Shown here: piece by piece, positions 16,923 to 27,638 of the stretch
How the letters are laid out: every line of letters begins with the position of its first letter
Position numbering within the stretch: the first letter of the stretch is position 1
Source of the DNA: Gammaproteobacteria bacterium
GTDB taxonomy: Bacteria > Pseudomonadota > Gammaproteobacteria > Porifericomitales > Porifericomitaceae
Reading direction: 5' to 3'
DNA length: 64,000 nt
Assembly (NCBI GenBank): GCA_014238615.1
Contig: JABAAT010000024.1
Coordinates: 104,234 to 168,233 of the forward strand
Notes under the pieces: generated by a model
The model's input: only the letters and a program-made list of their open reading frames with translations
Databases searched by the model: none
Told to the model about the DNA's origin: nothing
Program-made: the position numbers and the translations under genes

Positions 16923-18269
16923 ATGTTCAACAAGATTGTGATCGCCAACCGTGGCGAGATCGCCCTGCGCATCCTGCGCGGCTGTAAAGAGCTGGGTATC
17001 CAAACCGTGGCTGTTTACTCCGAGGCCGATCGTGAGCAGAAACATGTCCTGCTCGCCGACGAATCGGTTTGCATCGGCCCTCCGCCCCCCTCCGACAGCT
17101 ACCTGCATATACCGGCCGTCATCAGCGCCGCTGAGATCACCGACGCCGAGGCCATCCACCCAGGTTACGGTTTCCTTGCCGAAAACGCTGACTTCGCCGA
17201 GCAGGTGGAGCAAAGCGGCTTTTGTTTCATCGGCCCCCGCCCGGCTACCCTGCGTCTCATGGGCGACAAGCTGCGCGCCAAGGAAGAAGTTCAGAGGCTC
17301 GGCCTGAACTGCGTCCCAGGCGGCACCGGGGCCCTGCCCGAGGGGTCCGAAGCCTGCCTGACCATGGCCAGGCACATCGGCTTCCCCGTGCTCATCAAGG
17401 CCGCCGCCGGCGGTGGCGGACGCGGCATGCGCGTGGTCCACAGCGAAGCCATGTTGCTGAACGCCGTGAGTCTCACGCGCGCCGAAGCCGGAACAGCTTT
17501 CGGTGACAACACCCTGTACCTGGAAAAATACCTGGAGCGCCCCAGGCACATCGAGATCCAGGTGCTCGCCGACGGCAAGGGGAACTGCATCCACCTGGGA
17601 GAACGCGATTGCTCCATACAGCGCCGCCATCAGAAGCTGATCGAGGAGGCCCCGGCTCCCTTTATCGAACCCAGGCAACGTGAAAACCTGGGGAAACGCT
17701 GCGTCGAGATCTGCCACTCCCTGAACTACCGCGGCGCCGGCACCATGGAGTTCCTATACGAAAACGACAACTTCTACTTTATCGAGATGAACACCCGTAT
17801 CCAGGTGGAGCACCCGGTCACCGAGATGATTACCGGCATCGACCTGGTCAAGGAGCAGATCCGTCTCGCCGCCGGGGCCGAGCTCGGCATCAAGCAAAAA
17901 GAGTTGCGCCCGCGCGGATGGGCCATCGAGTGCCGCATCAACGCCGAGCACCCGGAAACCTTCCGCCCCAGCCCCGGCACCATCACCCACTACCACGCCC
18001 CCGGAGGCCCCGGGGTGCGCATGGACACCCACATCTACCAGAACTACAGCATTCCCCCCTACTACGACTCCCTCATCGGCAAACTGGTTGCAAGCGGCAA
18101 CAGCAGGGAGGAAGCCCTGGCCCGCCTGGACAATGCACTGCACGAGATCATCATAGAAGGCACGGACACCAACCTCCCCCTGCTACGCCGCCTGGTAAGA
18201 GACGCCGACTTTCGGAACGGAGCACTGCACATCCACTTCCTGGAACAATGGATGAAAAGCGAAGGCTGA
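16923..18269 (+). CDS. accC: Biotin carboxylase.
   Basis: 448 aa with full-length identity to AccC ([19 protein letters not shown]...). Confidence 0.97.
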
Positions 18270-18459
18270 ACCCGGCGCCCCTCAAGGCTCCCCCCGCGCA
18301 ACACATACGAACGCGGACAACCACCCCACGTATATGATCCCCCGAATCAAAACCCTGGTGCCGAGGCAAAAACGCAAAAGGTTCTGTCCATCTTCTCCAG
18401 CCTTGCCGGTGGGCGCTCCCACCTGGGACATGGGCGCGGGCTTTGCTTCGCTCCTGTTT

Positions 18460-21400
18460 CTAGGGGGCGATGACCGGTCCCTTCTTGATGAGCTCCAGGA
18501 GTCGCTGTTTACTCTTCCTGGTCCATTGCTCTACGTCTTCCGGGGTGCGTAGAGCGGCGCCTTGGAGTTCCGCCTGCTGTGCTTCCGGTTCTGTTTGCCG
18601 CACTGCCTGCAGGAAGGCCTCTCTGAAGAGCTGTGGGAAAGCGGCCTTGTTCCTGCTCCAGGTTTCCAGGGAAACCTGCTCCAGGGATTGTCTTAGCTCC
18701 TCCGTGGTGCCTATGGGGCCCTTGTCTATTTCCTGGTCCAGCCCGGCCGCAACCAGGATCTTGTACTGCTCTTCCTCTTCGAGTTTCCGCCAGCTCGTTG
18801 CCTCCTGGAGCCTGCCTTTCTCCTGTTCGTAAGCCGCCGCATACCCCTGCTCGGCCGCGATGAGGATGTTGCGTAGTTCTGTTGCCAGTTTCTGCTCCAT
18901 GATATCCATGGGATTTTCCGACTGGAGCAGGTTGCGGTTCTGCCTGATTGAACCAAGTTGTTGACTCAGCTCCCTGGCGATGGGGAGGCCTTTTGCGTGT
19001 ATCAGCAATTCGAGGAGTTGCCTGTATTGTCTTGTGCGCTTCTGTTGGAGCTCTGCCTGCTCTCTCCATTCCTGGATCTCCTTTTGGAGTTGCTTGCGCC
19101 GGGCGTGGATGGCCTGTAACCTCCCTTCGCCTGGCCTGCCCTGCATGTCCTTGAGGTGACTGGTGTCCGGGGGCTTAGGGAAGGGGGGGTCTCCTCCTAT
19201 TCTTTCGGCCAGGGCTGTCACCTCGTTCAAGTATTTATCCGCTGCATCCGCCTCCTCCCCGGGTTGGCACGAGATGCCCGCTTCCTGGAACAGCTCCCTT
19301 AGCTCAGTGAGCTGCGGGGCGCCGATGGTGGGGCTCTCTCCGTGGAATTCCGCGGCGTGGATCTTTCCCTGGACCATGACGTCCGCCCGCAGGGGTTTGC
19401 CATCGAGGCTCGCGTGCAGGCGGCCAGCGTCGCAGAGGCTCATGATGACGCTGTCTATGACGTCCCTGGGCCAGCCGTATGGGGGTGCCGCGAAGTGCTC
19501 CCTGATCTGCCCGCCCTTCCTGCCGGGTCCTACCTGCTCAAGCACCATGGCGCATACGGGATGCTGCTCCACGGGGCCTCGATATCCCAAGGGTCCCAGG
19601 GGGGCGTCCGAGCCTGCCTGGGTGAGATCCAGAACCTGCCTCCAGCGCTTGTCGTCCACATGGTGGAATTCGTGGAACAGGCGCTCCTGTGCATTCCTTG
19701 CCCCCTGGATGAGCTTCTTGATGGTGCTCGCCTCCTGGATTTCCTCGCCCCCGCCCTGGAAGATCCTGACCTCCCGCATGAGCTTTTGCACCAGCCTCTT
19801 GCGTTCCTGCTCGGCGTCCCGGACCCGGGTCGCCAGTACCCGGCGCACCTCCTCGTCCTCGGAGGAGACGGGGGAGCCCTTGTCGGCCAAGGTTTCCCTG
19901 GCCGCTTCCTCGCCGGCGATCGCTACAGAGAGATCGTCCGAGTGTTCCCTGGGAATAAAGGCATACAGCAATGGACTCTCTGTGCCGGCGGCACGGGCGG
20001 TCTGCTCTACTTCTTTCTCCCCGGTGTTCCAGCCGTCCCGGATCCAGACGGGGATGGCGGTGCTGTCTCCCCTGGGCGCCTCGTGACCGATGTGCCAGGT
20101 GAGCTTGCGGGGTGTCTTGTATTCTCCCTGCATCAGGCTGATAGACTCCACGTACTCCTTGGTCTCCTCCTGGAGAACCTCGGTGCGTGTGACGCTGAGC
20201 CGCGCCTGGTCTTCCATGAATGCCTTGCGACGTTTTCTGAACTCCTTCTCCCATTCGCTTCCTTCCCGGGTCTGCAAGGCGTATTCGTCCCCCTCCAACT
20301 TCACCAGGATGCCCTCCTGTACCAGCTTTTCCAGGGCTTCCGGGAGTTCCTGCCGCAGCTTGTCGCGATCCCGCTCCAGGTCTTTCACCAACAGGTCTGT
20401 CAGGCTTTCCGTGGTAGCGCGCACCCCCAGATCGGCTTCCTTCCCGCGCGGCAGCCTGCCGATCAAGAACACCAGGCTGCAGATGCCGGCGCGCAGATCA
20501 CCCCCGGGGGTGCCATCGCCCAAGGCGGTGATCCGGTCATGGACCTCTCGCGGCAACTGGCCGGACTGCAGCAGGTTGGATGCGATCTGCCCGTACAGGA
20601 AGTCCGTGGGCACCACGGTGCCCAGGGGATCCTCCGCGGTGGCGCGGGCCGCCTCGTAGATGATGCGCAGCTGTGTGCGCAGCCGGTCGGTGCCGCCAGT
20701 GTGGTGCAGGGAGCGCAGGATTTCCACCCAGAAGCGGCGCCGCACCGGAAGCAGCGGGTAGTCCTGGATCAGGGCTTCCTCGTCCTCGGCGGCGGTTTTA
20801 AGCCTGGTGTGTGACAGCTGCCGGTGCGCCTCGCCGGAATTCCATTCCAGTATTTCGCGTAACGAGGAGATGCAGTTCTCTTTCTTGGCCAGCACGACCT
20901 TGCGCACGACCTGCTCCACGTCGTTGTCGGAAAGCTGGACGTTCACCGTGAAGAGGCCCTGGAGCGGCTGCAAGGCGGAGGCAGCCTGCAGGGCCGACTG
21001 ACCGATCCCCAGGAGCAACAGCTTGCCGCCGAAACGCTTGCCGCAGGCCTCAACCACCTCCTGGAAATCCTGGGTACGCGAGCTGTCCTCGCCGAGGTAT
21101 GGCTGGACCTCGTCCAGAAGGATCGCGGTACAGGGGATGGCCGAGCGCTCCGTCAGGACCTCCCGGATGGTGGCCACGAACTCATCGGTGTTGATGTCGT
21201 CCACATCCTTGTATTGTGCGCGCAGCAAGACGCCGACGTCCTTTGCATCTTTGGCGAAGTTCGGATTGATTTTCAGCAGGGTCTTCGAGACGTAGGGGCT
21301 GACGTACATATCGCGCAGCTCCTGTTCAAAATTGCGCTTCTCCTCATGGAGCGCGGCCACCATGGGAGTGTACAGCTTGTTCCGCCTGAGCCACAGGGTG

Positions 21401-21915
21401 AACTTCGCCTGGGGGTAGCTTGCGGGCAACCTCGCCGATCTGAACACAACGGCCAGCACCGCCAGGCGCACGCTGCCCTTGCCGCCGACATCCGCCCCCA
21501 GCGTCCCGGCCGCCGCATGCAGGCCGCTGCCGCTACTGCCGAGGGTGGAGAGTTCCAGGAGCAGTTCTTTGATCTCCCCCGACACTCCGGCCAGGGAGCG
21601 GGCCTTCGCGCCGTCTTCCGGGAATTGATAGTCCTCCCACAGGAAGCGCAACACCTTGGCCAGGTGAGATTTACCGCTGCCGTAGGGGCCGCTGACCCAG
21701 ACCGCGGGCTGTTGCGGCTTGTCGCAGTGCTCAAGATAGGATTGCAGGATGCGGATCAGCCCCTCCTGGTATCCCCCGTCACAGACAAAACGCTCCAGCT
21801 CAAAGCGCAGAACCGCGCGGTTACCCGAGGTCATGGCATCGCTCAGCTCGGCGACCCCGTCGTTCAGAAGCTTGTTATCCCAAGGAGCTTTTTCGTAGAT
21901 TTCCTTGTTTTTCAT
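18460..21915 (-). CDS. BrxC/PglY-like BREX-type P-loop ATPase (about 1152 aa). It is an orphan with no other BREX components.
   Basis: The N-terminus MKNKEIYEKAPW mirrors the BrxC start. A Walker A motif (VWVSGPYGSGKSHLAKVLRFL) sits at the BrxC-typical position, with a Walker-B-like ILLDEVQ. The long alpha-helical C-terminal region includes PYGWPRD. The ATG at 21915 is preferred, though the ORF extends to 22026. Confidence 0.7.
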   Translation of the reverse strand: MKNKEIYEKAPWDNKLLNDGVAELSDAMTSGNRAVLRFELERFVCDGGYQEGLIRILQSYLEHCDKPQQPAVWVSGPYGSGKSHLAKVLRFLWEDYQFPEDGAKARSLAGVSGEIKELLLELSTLGSSGSGLHAAAGTLGADVGGKGSVRLAVLAVVFRSARLPASYPQAKFTLWLRRNKLYTPMVAALHEEKRNFEQELRDMYVSPYVSKTLLKINPNFAKDAKDVGVLLRAQYKDVDDINTDEFVATIREVLTERSAIPCTAILLDEVQPYLGEDSSRTQDFQEVVEACGKRFGGKLLLLGIGQSALQAASALQPLQGLFTVNVQLSDNDVEQVVRKVVLAKKENCISSLREILEWNSGEAHRQLSHTRLKTAAEDEEALIQDYPLLPVRRRFWVEILRSLHHTGGTDRLRTQLRIIYEAARATAEDPLGTVVPTDFLYGQIASNLLQSGQLPREVHDRITALGDGTPGGDLRAGICSLVFLIGRLPRGKEADLGVRATTESLTDLLVKDLERDRDKLRQELPEALEKLVQEGILVKLEGDEYALQTREGSEWEKEFRKRRKAFMEDQARLSVTRTEVLQEETKEYVESISLMQGEYKTPRKLTWHIGHEAPRGDSTAIPVWIRDGWNTGEKEVEQTARAAGTESPLLYAFIPREHSDDLSVAIAGEEAARETLADKGSPVSSEDEEVRRVLATRVRDAEQERKRLVQKLMREVRIFQGGGEEIQEASTIKKLIQGARNAQERLFHEFHHVDDKRWRQVLDLTQAGSDAPLGPLGYRGPVEQHPVCAMVLEQVGPGRKGGQIREHFAAPPYGWPRDVIDSVIMSLCDAGRLHASLDGKPLRADVMVQGKIHAAEFHGESPTIGAPQLTELRELFQEAGISCQPGEEADAADKYLNEVTALAERIGGDPPFPKPPDTSHLKDMQGRPGEGRLQAIHARRKQLQKEIQEWREQAELQQKRTRQYRQLLELLIHAKGLPIARELSQQLGSIRQNRNLLQSENPMDIMEQKLATELRNILIAAEQGYAAAYEQEKGRLQEATSWRKLEEEEQYKILVAAGLDQEIDKGPIGTTEELRQSLEQVSLETWSRNKAAFPQLFREAFLQAVRQTEPEAQQAELQGAALRTPEDVEQWTRKSKQRLLELIKKGPVIAP

Positions 21916-22514
21916 AAGCTCTATAACTCCGTTGCTTGAAGTGATAGGAACGGCGTGGTAGCCCCAGCCGTCCCGGGCACCCAACAGGCGATGGTTATTA
22001 TCTTCATATTCGCCGGGCGGCTTCAAAATCCCCCGTGGACAGCGTGGAGAACTCCATAACCCTGATCATATAGTAACCCGCCGGGTATTCCAGAATGTGG
22101 GCCGGCACCACGCGGGCCGGGCAACGGCCCAAGGCACCGGGAATGGAGGGGCTCCCCCCACGGCAGGCGTTTTGCGCCGCCACACGGCACTCGGCGGGAT
22201 ACCGGCCATTCCGGACCTTCCACGCACCCGGCAAGGGAAAATAACTCTTCTGAGCGGCGCCTGCGGCCTGGCTGCCCCTGCCTGGGCCAACTGCTTTCCC
22301 GCACCTCCTCCGAGGGACGCCGGGATCTCCGCCCGCCGCCAGGCCACGGCGGGAACACACCCGTGCCGTCTTACAACTGTTTACATTGACAGGGAAGCTG
22401 ATAGTTACTACTCTCACAATAATCCGTGCGTTGGCCAGGCTACCGGCCTGGAACGCTTTCCAAGCTTTTCAGGACTGCAGGCGCCGCACTCACAATCCAT
22501 AGGGAGGTGATGCC

Positions 22515-23510
22515 ATGGAATCATCTAATGACACGCAACCACGTAATATCGTGATCTGTTGTGACGGCACGGGAAACGAATATGGGGAAAACAACACAAA
22601 CGTTGTACTGCTGCACTCGCTGCTTGAAAAAGACTCCAGGCAGTTGGCTTTTTATGACCCGGGCGTGGGTACCGGGGGGTGGGAATATGAACATGGAAAG
22701 ATAACGAAAAAATGCGACCTGGCAACCGGCGGCGGTCTGCAGAAGAATGTGGAAGACGCCTATCGCTACCTGATGCATCCCTATCGGGAAGGGGACAAAG
22801 TCTATCTCTTCGGCTTCTCGCGCGGGGCTTTCACGGCCCGCTCCCTGGCGGGCATGTTGCATAAAGTGGGATTACTGACGCCTGGCAGGGAGAATATGGT
22901 GAAGTATGCCAGTAAGATGTATAACACCAAAAACAACAAGGAACTGTCTGCCGACTTCAAGAAGGACTTCTCGCGTTCCTGTCCGGTGTATTTCATCGGC
23001 GTCTGGGATACAGTGAGATCGCTGTATCTGAACGCCGGAAAGCGCTTCCATGATGACACCCTGAACCCCGATGTGAAGTACGGCTGTCATGCTTTAGCCA
23101 TTGACGAAAAGCGTAAAGACTTCCCTCCCTCCCTGTGGGATGAATCATCCAGGACCCCCGAACAAACCATTGAGCAAGTATGGTTTCCGGGGGTGCATTC
23201 GGATGTAGGCGGCTGGTACGATGCGCGCGGACTCTCCAACGGGGCACTGCACTGGATGGCGAAAAAGGCGAAACGCCGCGGGTTGCGGTTGTCCCTGGAT
23301 CTGAAGGAACTTAAGCGCGATTATTCCCCGGATGCGCATGACGAACTGCATGATTCTTATGAGGGAATTTATCGTTTACGTGGAACAAGCGTACGCAAAA
23401 TCCCGGAGGGGGCGAAACTGCACCGCAGTGTGGAGGAACGGATGTCCCGGGAGGAAAACGACTACCGGCCTAAGAACCTGCCGGAGAACCGCTCTTGGGT
23501 GAATGACTGA
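22515..23510 (+). CDS. DUF2235 (Tle1-like) alpha/beta-hydrolase, a putative lipase/esterase (331 aa).
   Basis: IVICCDGTGNE near the N-terminus and the GFSRGA nucleophile-elbow motif, plus HSDVGGWY, are hallmarks of the DUF2235 T6SS-phospholipase-like catalytic domain. It has the lowest GC in the window (about 50%). It is divergent from the BrxC-like gene. Confidence 0.7.
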   Translation: MESSNDTQPRNIVICCDGTGNEYGENNTNVVLLHSLLEKDSRQLAFYDPGVGTGGWEYEHGKITKKCDLATGGGLQKNVEDAYRYLMHPYREGDKVYLFGFSRGAFTARSLAGMLHKVGLLTPGRENMVKYASKMYNTKNNKELSADFKKDFSRSCPVYFIGVWDTVRSLYLNAGKRFHDDTLNPDVKYGCHALAIDEKRKDFPPSLWDESSRTPEQTIEQVWFPGVHSDVGGWYDARGLSNGALHWMAKKAKRRGLRLSLDLKELKRDYSPDAHDELHDSYEGIYRLRGTSVRKIPEGAKLHRSVEERMSREENDYRPKNLPENRSWVND

Positions 23511-26500
23511 CCGGGGGCTCCGGGCGGCGGGGTTGCGCTGTACGGTTCCTGGTTTTGTTGGGGACACCGCAGCCGCCGCCTCCCGGGGTGTCTATGATGA
23601 GGTGATCTCCGGGTTGCAGCTGGAGGCTCTGGCAGGGCTGCAGTTCCTCCACGTGGTTGCTTCCACTTCTTTTGAGGCGGTTGCGGCCCGGTTGACCGGG
23701 GGCACCTCCTTTTAGTCCCTGTGGTTGCCTTCTGCGGTTGGAGGTAATCAGGGATACGGTCACGGGCTGCTGGAAACTGAGCTCCCTGGTGAGGCCTTCT
23801 CCTCCCTTCCAGCGTCCCGCTCCCCCGGAGTTTTCCCTGGCCTGAAAGCGCTCCACCCGGATGGGGTACCTGGCTTCCAGTATCTCGGGGTCGGTGATGC
23901 GGGAATTGGTCATGTGGGTGTGCACCGGGCCGGCGCCCGGGAAGTCCAGTCCGGCGCCCGCTCCTCCCGCCAGGGTCTCGTAGTACTGGAATTCCTCGTT
24001 GCCGCAGCAGAGGTTGTTCATGGTGCCCTGGGAGTCGGCCAGGACGCCCAGCGCGGCAAAAATGCAGTTCACGACGGCCTGGCTGGTCTCCACGTTGCCG
24101 GCGGCGACGGCCGCAGGATACTCTGGGTGCAACAAGGAAGGCCTGGGGATGATCAGGGTCAGGGGTCTCAGGCAGCCCTGGTTCAGGGGGATGGGGTCGG
24201 ATACGAGGCAGCGCAGGGCGTAGAGTACGGCCGCCTCGGTGACAGCGCGCGGAGCATTGAAGTTGCCGGGGTGAATGGGGCTGGTGCCGGTGAAGTCAAA
24301 GCTTGCGGTGCCGTTTGCCGGGTCTGTTTCAATGCGCAGGTGGATCAGGGCGCCGTCGTCCAGGCGGCGCTCGGCCTGTCCCGAGCGGGCGGCGCGCAGG
24401 GCCTCCCTGACGCAGTGCGCGGCGTTGTCCCTCAGGTATTCCGTGTAGGCCAGCACGGTGTTTTCCCCGTGTTGCCGAAGCATGCGTCTCAACTCCTCCT
24501 GCCCGGCACGACAGGCCGCCCACTGGGCGCGCAGGTCGGCGAGGTTGTCCTGCGGGGTGCGGGCCGGGTGCGGGCCGGCCTGCAGCAGCCGAAGCAACTC
24601 CCGCTCGCGCGGGCGCTGCTCCTCTCCGCAGTAGAGGAAATCCCTGATCAGGACGCCCTCCTCTTCGATGTGCCTGGAGTCGGGCGGCATGGATCCCGGG
24701 ACCGCGCCGCCGATGTCGGCGTGGTGGCCGCGCGCGCCCAAAAAGAAGCACAGCGTGCCGTGCTCGTTAAAGAGCGGCTGGATCAGGGTCACATCCGGGA
24801 GATGCGTGCCGCCGGCGTAGGGGTCGTTCGAGACCCAGGCCTGGCCGGGGCGCAGTCTGCTCGCCTGGCGTTGCTTCAGAACGCGCACCGCAACACCCAT
24901 GCTGCCAAGGTGCACGGGGACATGCGGGGCATTCGCCACGAGTCGACCTTCGGCGTCAAACAGGGCACAGGAAAAATCCAGCCGCTCCTTGATGTTGACG
25001 CTGGTGGCGGTGCGCTGCAGCACCGCCCCCATCTGCTCCGCCACCGCCATGAAACGGTTGTTGAAAACCTCCAGGCGCGCCGGGTTCGGGCCCTTGCTCC
25101 TGGCACCCGCCTTGCGGCGGCGGCCTCGACTCCGCTCCAACAGCAGCATGCCATCGCTCTCGTTTCCCTCTTTCAACCGCGCGCGCCAGCCCGGCTCAAT
25201 CACCACCGTGGTGTGCGCTTCCAGGATCAGGCCCGGGCCGGAGCGCGGCGGCTTCCCGCGCAGCGCTTCGCGCGATGCTATCCAGCTCTCACGCCAGCGG
25301 CCGCCGGCCAGGAACCGGGTTTCAGAACGTGCCGCGGCGTCCGGCTCCTCCACGCTGCTTTGCGGCATGGCGCGCAGGGCGCCGGGGGGCGGCGCGGCGG
25401 CCTCAGCCTGCAGGAGCTCCAACACCAGGGGGCGGTCCGAATGCAGGTATCCGTAAGTCCGCCGATGGCGCTCTTCAAAGTCGGCCCGCATCGTCAAGGC
25501 CGTGGCGTAAGGCACCCGCAGCAGGGTATCGCTGCCTTGGTAGCGCAGGGCGGCGCGGTACTCCACGGTGCAGTGCGCCGCTTGTGCTCCCTGGGCGCGC
25601 AGTTCGCCGAGCGCCGCCTCACCCAGTTCCAGGTGCAGCTCTTCCCAGTGCGCCTCCGATGTTTGCTCCAATCGTTGTTCCACGCCGCGTTCACGCACCA
25701 CGCGCAGGCTGGCCAGTCCAGTACCCCAGGCGGACAACACCCCGGCCAGGGGCGGCAGCAGCACCTTGGACATGCCAAGGCGTTCGGCCACCCGGCAGGC
25801 GTGCTGCGCGCCGGCGCCGCCGAAGCAGAGCATGCTGTGCCCGGCGGGGTCGTCACCGTGCCGCGCGCAGAGCCGCTTGATGGCGCGCGCCATGTTGTCG
25901 GTGGCGATCTCCAGGAACATGTCAGCCAGGGTCTCGGCCCGGTATCCTCCACCCACCTGTTCGGCGAGTCGGGCGAGATGCTCGCGCGCGGCGTCGGCGG
26001 AGGGCGGCTGCGCGCCGTCCGCGCCGAACACGGCCGGGAAAGAGTCGGGCAGCAGTCTGCCGGTGCAGAAATTTGCATCGGTGACGGTCAGCGGGCCGCC
26101 GCGCCGGTAGCTGACCGGTCCCGGGTCGGAACCGGCGCTGTGCGGACCCACCTGCAGGCGCCCGCCGGCGTAACGCAGGATGGAGCCGCCGCCGGCCGCC
26201 ACCGAGTGGATCTCCAGCATCGGGGCGCGCAGTAGATAACCGGCGACGCGGCTTTCCATGGCGCGCTCCAGTTCACCGGCCCAGTGCCAAACGTCGGTGG
26301 AAGTGCCGCCCATGTCAAAGCCGATGAGCCGGGTGTGCCCGGCGCGGCGCCCACATTCGCTGCCGCCCACCACGCCCCCGGCCGGCCCGGAATAGACGCT
26401 GTCGCGCCCCCGGAAATGACCGGACGCGGCCAGACCGCCGTTTGACTGCATGAAAAACAGGCGCGGGCCGCCCTTCTGTTCCGCACCCAAAGCCTGCGCC

Positions 26501-27174
26501 AGGCCCCCGAGGCGGCGGCGCAGCACCGGCCCAAGGTAGGCATCCACCAGGGTCGTGGCGGCACGGCTTACCAGGCGCGGCAACGGCTCCGTCTCGCTGC
26601 TCAGCGAGACCTGTGGGAAACCCAGTTCCCGCGCCAGTTCGCCCAGGCGCTGCTCATGCGCGGGATAACGGTGTCCATGCAGCAACACCACGGCCAGGGC
26701 CTCCACCCCCTGCTCCCGCGCCGCCGCCAAGTGCGCACGCGCCAGCTGCTCGTCCAAGGGGCGCAACACCAGGCCCTTGGCCGAGACCCGCTCCTCCACC
26801 TCGATAACCTGCTCATACAGCGCCTCGGGCAAACGAATGCAAAGATTGAAGAGCTCCGGACGATCCTGGTAGCCGATACGCAGCACATCCCCGAAGCCGC
26901 GCGTGGTGAGTAACGCGGTGCGGGCGCCGCGCCGCTGCAGGAGCGCGTTGGTGCCCAGTGTGGTACCCAGGTGCAGCGCAGCAATCACCCCCGGCGCCGG
27001 CACCGCGCCGGCTGGCAGACCCAGCAAGCGCCGCACGCCTTCCAGCACCGCGTCCGGATAGCGATCCGGCGCCTCGGAGAGCAGCTTGAGCACATGCGTG
27101 CGTCCATCCGGAGAGACCGCCACCACGTCGCTGAAGGTGCCGCCCCGATCGATCCAGAAATGCCAACCGTTCAT
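23470..27174 (-). CDS. oplAH: Fused 5-oxoprolinase / N-methylhydantoinase A+B (HyuA-HyuB fusion, OplAH-like).
   Basis: The N-terminus [15 protein letters not shown] is the hydantoinase A start, and the C-terminal half carries hydantoinase B motifs. It totals about 1235 aa. The ATG at 27174 is preferred over the GTG at 27195. Confidence 0.85.
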
Positions 27175-27638
27175 GCCGCGGGACTTCCGGGGCACCGCCC
27201 CCCGCGGGCGACAACGCGAGGCGGGAATTTTGCAGCGGGGCGACCGGCGCCGTGTTCATCACGCATGCACAGATTATATGCCTCACCCGGGCGCGCTTCA
27301 CCCGGCGCCCCCCATCAGCGCGCACGATCGGCGCGCGTGACACGCACGGCACCGCACAAGCAACACGGCGGCCGGGTCGCGAAAAAATACGCAACTTTGC
27401 GCTATGATCGAATGCATCATACCGGCTTGCATAAGGCCGCAGCCTTACCTCAAGCTGTGTCGACATGCTGGAAGAACCTGGTGCACGAAGGAAGCCGGAA
27501 GCTTCGATCCACGGCGCCACCTCATGCACTCGCGGCGCGCTGCGGCCGCCCGCGCAGGGAAGCACTCTCACCCGACATCACGGGAAGTCCGCCTGCCGCC
27601 CCCTCCCGGCTGGAATCCCCACGAATGAAACACCATTA

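Follow-up and report, generated by a model that had tools for sequence, protein, structure and literature searches.

In the literature that we searched, DUF2235 hydrolases appear as secreted effectors of type VI (T6SS), type IV or ESX secretion systems or as polymorphic toxins, and none of the papers found deals with solo cytoplasmic forms. Here we analyse a gene for such a short DUF2235 protein, on the forward strand of a 64,000-nt stretch of a Gammaproteobacteria bacterium of the family Porifericomitaceae (assembly GCA_014238615.1, contig JABAAT010000024.1, positions 104,234 to 168,233; the whole stretch is hereafter the window). A preliminary description, made from the sequence alone, had proposed that the hydrolase could serve as the effector arm of a neighbouring ATPase. 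We find that the gene encodes an intact catalytic core of foreign base composition, and we identify the ATPase as an orphan BrxC left by a decayed bacteriophage exclusion (BREX) operon. The window protein is, in our judgement, probably a solo accessory hydrolase unrelated both to BrxC and to T6SS.

The closest described relatives are the T6SS Tle1 proteins of Pseudomonas aeruginosa (PA3290, 4o5p), enteroaggregative Escherichia coli (EAEC; 6sjl/6ski) and Xanthomonas (TleB, 9j3f). They have in common with the window protein the PF09994 domain on an alpha/beta-hydrolase core and the motifs GFSRG, (V)WDTV and PGVHSDVGG, and structural comparison with Foldseek gives E-values of 8e-11 to 8e-8. The window protein differs in being just 17-19% identical and shorter (331 versus 520-780 amino acids, aa), and it has neither the additional Tle1 domains nor a secretion signal, a T6SS context or a Tli immunity gene; its homologs are solo genes in miscellaneous contexts. 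Legionella pneumophila lpg2422 (4m0m) has a similar DUF2235 fold (E 3.6e-6) in a non-T6SS organism context, but it is 14% identical and 721 aa long, and its function is uncharacterised. A looser parallel is CapV, the patatin-like cytoplasmic phospholipase effector of cyclic-oligonucleotide-based anti-phage signalling systems (CBASS), which is activated by cyclic dinucleotides. We use it as a working analogy only, that of an intracellular serine lipase able to degrade its own membrane once activated. Some plasmid DUF2235 homologs do adjoin SMODS and SAVED genes, but the folds differ (patatin versus DUF2235) and neither the window gene nor its close clade is linked to a signalling gene. In polymorphic toxin systems DUF2235 is known as Tox-ABhydrolase-1, a predicted lipid-targeting toxin domain (Zhang et al. 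2012, PMC3482391). There it forms the C-terminal module of large secreted RHS, T6SS or type II secretion toxins with immunity genes, whereas the window protein is free-standing and has neither feature. The neighbouring gene compares with type 1 BREX (brxA-brxB-brxC-pglX-pglZ-brxL). It is a bona fide brxC, and a related metagenome contig (the sister genome, see below) holds all six genes at the same site, whereas in the window brxC and 36 brxB codons are all that is left; DUF2235 does not count among the components of BREX.

A free-standing DUF2235 catalytic core

The gene and its catalytic codons are placed as follows.

22515..23510, + strand: stand-alone DUF2235/Tle1-like alpha/beta hydrolase gene (331 aa, Pfam PF09994)
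22812..22826, + strand: GFSRG nucleophile motif, residues 100-104 (Ser102 codon at 22818-22820)
23007-23009 and 23196-23198, + strand: codons of Asp165 and His228

Read directly from the sequence, the open reading frame (ORF) starts with ATG and has a GGGAGG ribosome-binding site 7 nt upstream. Pfam PF09994 (T6SS_Tle1-like_cat, formerly DUF2235) matches residues 10-250 over profile positions 1-286 of 287, with an E-value of 2.2e-76 (257.4 bits for a cutoff of 27), far beyond chance. The 80 residues C-terminal of the Pfam domain are conserved family-wide and hold no additional domain, and no extra N- or C-terminal domain for VgrG binding or membrane anchoring was found in the protein, of which the catalytic core alone aligns to Tle1. 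The preliminary description was therefore right to see a stand-alone core without trafficking domains. In an alignment of the window protein with 38 homologs, Ser102, Asp165 (in GVWDTV) and His228 (in GVHSDVGG) are invariant, and the loss of catalytic residues, which had been considered as a possible counter-argument, is seen in none of the 39 sequences. The GFSRGA and PGVHSDVGG blocks also align to those of the solved phospholipase TleB (9j3f).

The N-terminus is hydrophilic and not signal-peptide-like, and no hydrophobic or transmembrane segment occurs along the protein (maximum Kyte-Doolittle 19-mer of 0.76). The enzyme would presumably act in the cytoplasm. No immunity-like gene adjoins it: the spacer at 22027-22514 holds ORFs that are uncalled in the source annotation and match nothing in Pfam, and a Tli1-type periplasmic immunity gene was not found at the DUF2235 flanks, which are the oplAH 3’ end on one side and a 480-bp spacer on the other. 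The absence of an immunity gene noted earlier thus holds, and the combination of a secretion signal with a Tli-like gene, which would point to a classic T6SS effector, does not occur here.

An AlphaFold2 model was built from the 39-sequence alignment and compared with the PDB using Foldseek. It is an alpha/beta hydrolase (pLDDT 81.5, pTM 0.86), and the structural comparison suggested in the preliminary description returns a Tle1-type fold. The best PDB folds are P. aeruginosa Tle1 4o5p (E 8e-11), EAEC Tle1 in complex with VgrG (6sjl/6ski), TleB 9j3f and lpg2422 4m0m; the Foldseek probability is 1.00 for 4o5p, 6sjl, 9j3f and 4m0m, with query-normalised TM-scores of only 0.37-0.47. These top matches are 14-19% identical to the 331-aa window protein and 520-780 aa long. 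After them come small thioesterases, feruloyl esterases and monoacylglycerol lipases. Two loops with low model confidence, residues 54-72 and 171-177, could form a lid, which is speculation.

By the proposed mechanism, Ser102 of the GFSRG nucleophile elbow, activated by the base His228 and the acid Asp165, would attack a carboxylic ester; an acyl-enzyme intermediate would form and then be hydrolysed. By analogy with the Tle1 phospholipases A1/A2, the substrate would most likely be a lipid or phospholipid acyl ester. T6SS Tle1 proteins are reportedly toxic from the periplasm only, so there is no paradox in a solo enzyme that would act in the cytoplasm and has no immunity gene.

The protein has many relatives of the same build. 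A phmmer search against 1.84 billion representatives of 50%-identity clusters returns 13,685 matches at E<=1e-3 and 2,788 at 1e-30, and the best 150 are mostly 300-400 aa long. At 90% identity there are more than 7,998 clusters with E<=1e-10, the top 120 of which are about 320 aa long and 59-66% identical to the window protein. From these lengths we conclude that the catalytic-core-only form of DUF2235 is the common form of the clade and not an oddity. Most likely, the window gene belongs to a large clade of stand-alone proteins of about 320-400 aa that has spread horizontally as single-gene cassettes; the branch of the window protein is relatively long. The clade lacks an NCBIfam model, its members being named by the sources only as “DUF2235 domain-containing protein”, and PADLOC-DB 2.0 gives no match for the window protein, nor for two plasmid homologs (L117 and L114). 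When such short solo proteins are annotated, their Pfam name “T6SS Tle1-like” should not be taken to mean “T6SS effector”. One Gammaproteobacteria genome also holds a longer DUF2235 paralog of 563 aa (L008 9597-11288), approximately 0.6 kb downstream of a 322-aa homolog. A phage origin was considered and rejected, with no match in 50,697 GenBank phage records and three distant matches in 2.9 million IMG/VR contigs.

Exactly this protein is encoded on 9 metagenome contigs, which come from at least three samples, and the longer ones inspected share the same neighbours. The window contig itself is also deposited in ENA, as ERZ23489589 scaffold_14.

The neighbouring ATPase is an orphan BrxC

To the left of the DUF2235 gene and divergent from it, about 600 bp away, lies the ATPase gene.

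18460..21915, - strand: orphan brxC (BREX P-loop ATPase), intact 1151-aa ORF (PADLOC, NCBIfam)
21928..22035, - strand: brxB remnant, last 36 codons, in frame into brxC (PADLOC, tblastn)

The ORF at 18460..22026 (- strand) matches the PADLOC BrxC model PDLC02489 over its full length with 1275 bits, and the NCBIfam model BREX_BrxC with 690 bits for a cutoff of 400. The true start of brxC is Met38 of this ORF (position 21915). The 37 codons upstream of Met38 match the extreme C-terminus of BrxB, at positions 154-182 of 184 in the PADLOC BrxB model, and tblastn with residues 151-186 of the sister BrxB finds the stump with 61% identity; having lost its stop, the brxB stump continues in frame into brxC. 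BrxC still has its Walker A (G79-H84) and Walker B (D268/E269) residues, which belong to the invariant columns of a 22-sequence alignment. The window BrxC is 55% identical to that of the complete sister BREX, and DNA homology to the sister locus starts at about 18468, directly at the brxC stop. No BrxA, PglX, PglZ or BrxL is found by tblastn in the 64 kb using the sister proteins as queries.

A full-length BrxC next to a brxB stump, with no other BREX genes, indicates a BREX remnant and not a stand-alone ATPase awaiting an effector. We conclude from these sequence matches that the ATPase is an orphan brxC from a decayed type-1 BREX operon. BREX decay also explains the ATPase-effector pairing that had been proposed here. 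The window gene is a further member of a huge, well-populated but uncharacterised DUF2235 clade. Where an isolated BrxC is met, operon remnants should be looked for before a new system is proposed.

The sister genome has DUF2235 genes and a complete BREX at the same site

The sister genome is metagenome contig ERZ20067936 ptg000040l, which holds both the closest BrxC (55%) and the closest oplAH (80%). The order of its genes is Abhydrolase_2, SLFN_AlbA_2, an AAA_15/21 ATPase, a 174-aa protein, oplAH, two DUF2235 genes (344 and 347 aa), HTH-M78, brxA, brxB, brxC, pglX, pglZ, brxL and an integrase fragment. A complete BREX occupies the same chromosomal site, and in both genomes DUF2235 sits at the oplAH 3’ end. 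The sister DUF2235 copies have a GC content of 0.46-0.49, versus 0.60-0.66 for core genes and 0.54-0.60 for the BREX genes. By tblastn the window protein shares 58% and 51% identity with the two copies (61% and 52% in a MAFFT alignment), and it is closer to homologs from Binatia and Gammaproteobacteria (64-66%) than to either of them.

Between the sister DUF2235 genes and BREX sits a RosmerTA-like pair. The HTH-M78 gene is a fused, capP/RmrA-like gene, and an uncalled 163-aa DUF4411 ORF (E 2.5e-24) overlaps its stop (L031 6319-8024, - strand). HTH-M78 with DUF4411 is the usual RosmerTA-type pairing (10.1101/2022.05.11.491447; PMC10440598). HTH-M78 as an antitoxin or partner of DUF2235 was rejected, the overlapping DUF4411 ORF being the partner expected for it, and BLAST finds no M78 gene adjoining other DUF2235 loci. 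Another pair is found on the far side of oplAH in the sister genome, an SMC-like AAA_15/AAA_21 ATPase of 933 aa and a SLFN_AlbA_2/HATPase_c_4 protein of 394-420 aa; in Sedimenticola the same pair is inserted in the BREX operon, between pglX and pglZ (the two occurrences are L113 5362-9877 and L032 16944-21009).

No co-occurrence of DUF2235 and BrxC found outside this lineage

Linkage was examined from both sides. On the DUF2235 side we collected 27 loci from one-per-species genomes (Binatia, Pseudohongiella, other Gammaproteobacteria, Terriglobia, Bryobacterales, Nitrospinaceae, Bacteroidota and Alphaproteobacteria) and clustered their ORFs. The 27 loci hold no BrxC and no gene family common to unrelated loci; DUF2235 alone recurs, and there is no conserved small neighbour gene. 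The 80 immediate neighbours taken from 22 of the 27 loci belong to 114 Pfam families, mostly housekeeping, with only a few generic PADLOC matches and no T6SS gene among them. Three further Pfam-annotated DUF2235 neighbourhoods show miscellaneous chromosomal contexts.

On the BrxC side, an alignment-driven contig scan gave 80 metagenome loci with a BrxC of this clade, to which we added Sedimenticola; nearly all have brxA and brxB. DUF2235 occurs in none of these 81 other BrxC loci; in 36 of them the sequence extends 4.5 kb or more upstream of brxC. Beyond the window, the two co-occur solely in the sister genome. Judging by these samples, the DUF2235-brxC adjacency is a property of the variable island of this lineage.

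Composition and edges of the island

The island and its borders are made up of these further features.

16923..18269, + strand: accC (biotin carboxylase), left-flank core gene of the island (Pfam)
22036..22364, no strand: GC-rich spacer (GC 0.65-0.77) from the brxB stump to the DUF2235 cassette
22365..22514, + strand: low-GC 5’ region of the DUF2235 cassette, with TTGACA at 22386-22391 and the ribosome-binding site GGGAGG at 22502-22507
23529..23549, + strand: weak terminator-like hairpin with a T-rich tail (consensus match only)
23470..23566, - strand: non-conserved oplAH C-terminal tail, 31 aa after ..TPGGGGCG, right island junction
23567..27195, - strand: oplAH (fused hydantoinase A/B, oxoprolinase-like), conserved part, right flank (Pfam)

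The DUF2235 gene has a GC content of 0.533 versus 0.647 for the window. A sliding-window scan agrees with the earlier observation that it has the lowest GC of the stretch, as all eight of the lowest-GC 996-nt sliding windows in the 64 kb begin at positions from 22151 to 22551 and overlap the gene or its upstream region. At third codon positions (GC3) the value is 0.633, compared with 0.72-0.82 in 14 core genes and a host-like 0.79 in brxC. The composition of the DUF2235 gene is foreign and the gene was horizontally acquired; the GC3 difference from brxC argues for a separate arrival. GC drops from 0.66-0.77 to about 0.50 at roughly 22350, and a perfect TTGACA follows at 22386-22391, although the consensus scan yields no full promoter there. 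The low GC from near 22350-22365 together with the TTGACA suggests a cassette of approximately 1.2 kb with its own promoter, for which 22365..22514 is the likely region. The GC-rich spacer of about 330 bp before it (22036..22364) has no Pfam match, no Rfam match and no similarity to the sister locus.

The preliminary description took the 41-bp convergent overlap with the 3’ end of oplAH for the right edge of the insertion. The overlap is real (23470-23510), and the edge does lie at the oplAH end, but the junction falls near 23566. The window oplAH is 80% identical to that of the sister genome, and homology ends at 23566. Most oplAH homologs end 2-7 residues past ..TPGGGG(F/Y)G, and the window protein has 1234 aa versus a median of 1202. 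Its extra codons lie antisense to the DUF2235 3’ end and to the hairpin at 23529-23549, which starts 19 nt past the DUF2235 stop, inside the oplAH tail codons. The alignments indicate that the native oplAH stop was probably displaced by incoming DNA, with the junction near 23566. The 31-aa tail reads into the DUF2235 3’ end, which makes the 41-bp overlap a by-product. A search for an empty site with oplAH found one close relative, 80% identical, the next matches being at most 53% identical; the databases searched hold no third member of this lineage.

Just two genes lie between the end of accC (18269) and the conserved end of oplAH (23567). Most likely this is a small and variable island that holds DUF2235 together with the remains of a type-1 BREX. 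No tRNA and no Rfam match above noise were found. An imperfect 20-nt direct repeat (85%), with copies at 18265-18284 on the accC stop and at 27295-27314 upstream of the oplAH start, brackets the brxC-DUF2235-oplAH block; it is the sole bracketing repeat and probably a chance match in GC-rich DNA.

Weighing the alternatives

Several observations weigh against a solo accessory hydrolase without a part in conflict. Identity to any biochemically characterised Tle1 is below 20%. In both genomes of the lineage DUF2235 has BREX among its neighbours, along with other defence genes, and homologs on plasmids frequently lie in defence islands, so that a conflict-related role keeps some probability. An unregulated cytoplasmic phospholipase would also be toxic to its own cell, which implies that the substrate is not bulk membrane lipid or that regulation is cryptic.

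The alternative that survives best is that DUF2235 is defence cargo, an anti-phage effector of the abortive-infection type (for instance a membrane-degrading phospholipase activated by infection) that acts alone or as an accessory. We regard it as unlikely, with the following in its favour. A BREX remnant is 0.5 kb away from the window gene. The two DUF2235 genes of the sister genome lie between oplAH and the RosmerTA-like pair, after which comes the complete BREX, and AAA_15/21 and SLFN_AlbA_2 genes lie across oplAH.

The plasmid homologs add to this. There are 148 plasmid records with homologs, at 25-41% identity (tblastn), and we picked 12 of the homologs blind to their context, counting a defence system if it lay within 5 kb. 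Seven of the 12 have a recognised one (CBASS-like SMODS with SAVED, Septu, type I restriction-modification, ABC-three-component, DarTG). An SMODS nucleotidyltransferase with SAVED occurs in Agrobacterium pTi and Phaeobacter, a nucleotidyltransferase/HNH block with Septu in Rhizobium CIAT894, Septu PtuA-PtuB in Sphingobium and Methylocystis, a PtuA-like ATPase with an ABC-three-component system in Hymenobacter, and type I restriction-modification in Emticicia. Three others are near caspase/S8 peptidase, nuclease/ATPase or contractile-tail genes, and two have nothing comparable. On the Sphingobium, Methylocystis and Rhizobium plasmids, DUF2235 is 70-150 bp upstream of PtuA-PtuB and on the same strand (PADLOC PtuA at 364-577 bits), in the following blocks.

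L117 4995-8347, Sphingobium: DUF2235-PtuA-PtuB block
L128 5013-8504, Methylocystis: DUF2235-PtuA-PtuB block
L131 5007-8550, Rhizobium: DUF2235-PtuA-PtuB block

These blocks may represent a three-gene Septu variant. The plasmid contexts and the sister island together suggest that short DUF2235 hydrolases are frequent defence-island cargo. That the short stand-alone forms, the window protein included, make up an unrecognised class of such cargo, as lone lipase-type effectors or as a third Septu component, we consider doubtful. It would explain why both genomes of the lineage keep DUF2235 beside BREX and other defence genes. If true, anti-phage immunity would gain a class of alpha/beta-hydrolase effectors, and thousands of proteins now labelled “DUF2235 domain-containing” would acquire a function.

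The close clade of the window protein (at least 55% identity) speaks against defence cargo, with no defence context in about 30 loci. The plasmid homologs belong to a different clade, with no more than 35-42% identity; defence genes abound in the accessory regions of plasmids in any case, and the sample includes plasmids that are related to one another. DUF2235 has no PADLOC model, no paper in the literature searched links it to phage defence, and the 331 aa hold no sensor or regulatory domain.

In a second alternative the gene would be a passenger in decay that at present serves no function, which we consider quite improbable. The island is visibly decaying, as the BREX remnant attests, and the long branch of the window protein would fit. 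The ORF, however, is full length and keeps the invariant family residues, the triad included, it has a strong ribosome-binding site, and the identical protein recurs on the 9 contigs.

It is very improbable that DUF2235 is an orphan Tle1 effector secreted through a T6SS whose genes lie in another part of the genome. In favour of this reading, T6SS Tle1 effectors give the Pfam family its name and supply the best structural matches, and EAEC Tle1 binds VgrG directly, with no dedicated adaptor domain. The difference in length from the solved Tle1 proteins and the identity of 14-19% stand against it, as does the lack of an adjacent Tli-like lipoprotein gene, and the clade is solo across many phyla. 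The preliminary description had seen no T6SS genes nearby, and none turned up here either: the Pfam scan, which covered ORFs of at least 250 aa across the 64-kb window and the genes near the locus (about 12-33 kb), finds no vgrG, hcp, PAAR, tss or other T6SS domain, and the homolog neighbourhoods have none.

Finally, the idea from the preliminary description that the hydrolase and the adjoining ATPase form a two-gene system, with the hydrolase as effector arm, finds some appeal in the closeness of the two genes, in an arrangement that is stable across the metagenome contigs carrying them, in the frequency of ATPase-effector pairs in defence and in another DUF2235 clade that adjoins the ATPase PtuA, but it can be set aside as next to negligible given the divergent orientation and the gap of about 600 bp, the GC3 values of 0.63 and 0.79, an ATPase that is a canonical BrxC with a brxB stump and so a fragment of a six-gene operon, a sister genome in which a toxin-antitoxin pair separates the whole BREX operon from the DUF2235 genes, and co-occurrence in 0 of 81 loci on the BrxC side and 0 of about 30 on the DUF2235 side.

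Other features of the loci

Apart from the island, the window is core chromosome of an uncultured, high-GC bacterium, with rnfC, lptD, surA, dctM, groEL, dsbD, aroQ, accB and accC to the left of the locus, and oplAH, Abhydrolase_2, a DEAD helicase, thioredoxin, rho, nudix-thiE, argJ, secA, lpxC, ftsZ and the dcw cluster to the right. Among the plasmid loci, a protein of about 825 aa with an HD domain is found close to DUF2235-PtuA-PtuB in two of the three genera. In Agrobacterium pTi and Phaeobacter (L114 2129-8112 and L116 1-8097) the gene order is SMODS nucleotidyltransferase, SAVED, DUF2235 (386 aa) and a protein of 622-625 aa. This last protein is conserved after the plasmid DUF2235 gene and has no Pfam or NCBIfam match and a weak match to PADLOC PDC-S71. 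The Agrobacterium SMODS-SAVED-DUF2235 block is flanked by ImmA/IrrE with a helix-turn-helix gene and by DarT with a macro-domain gene.

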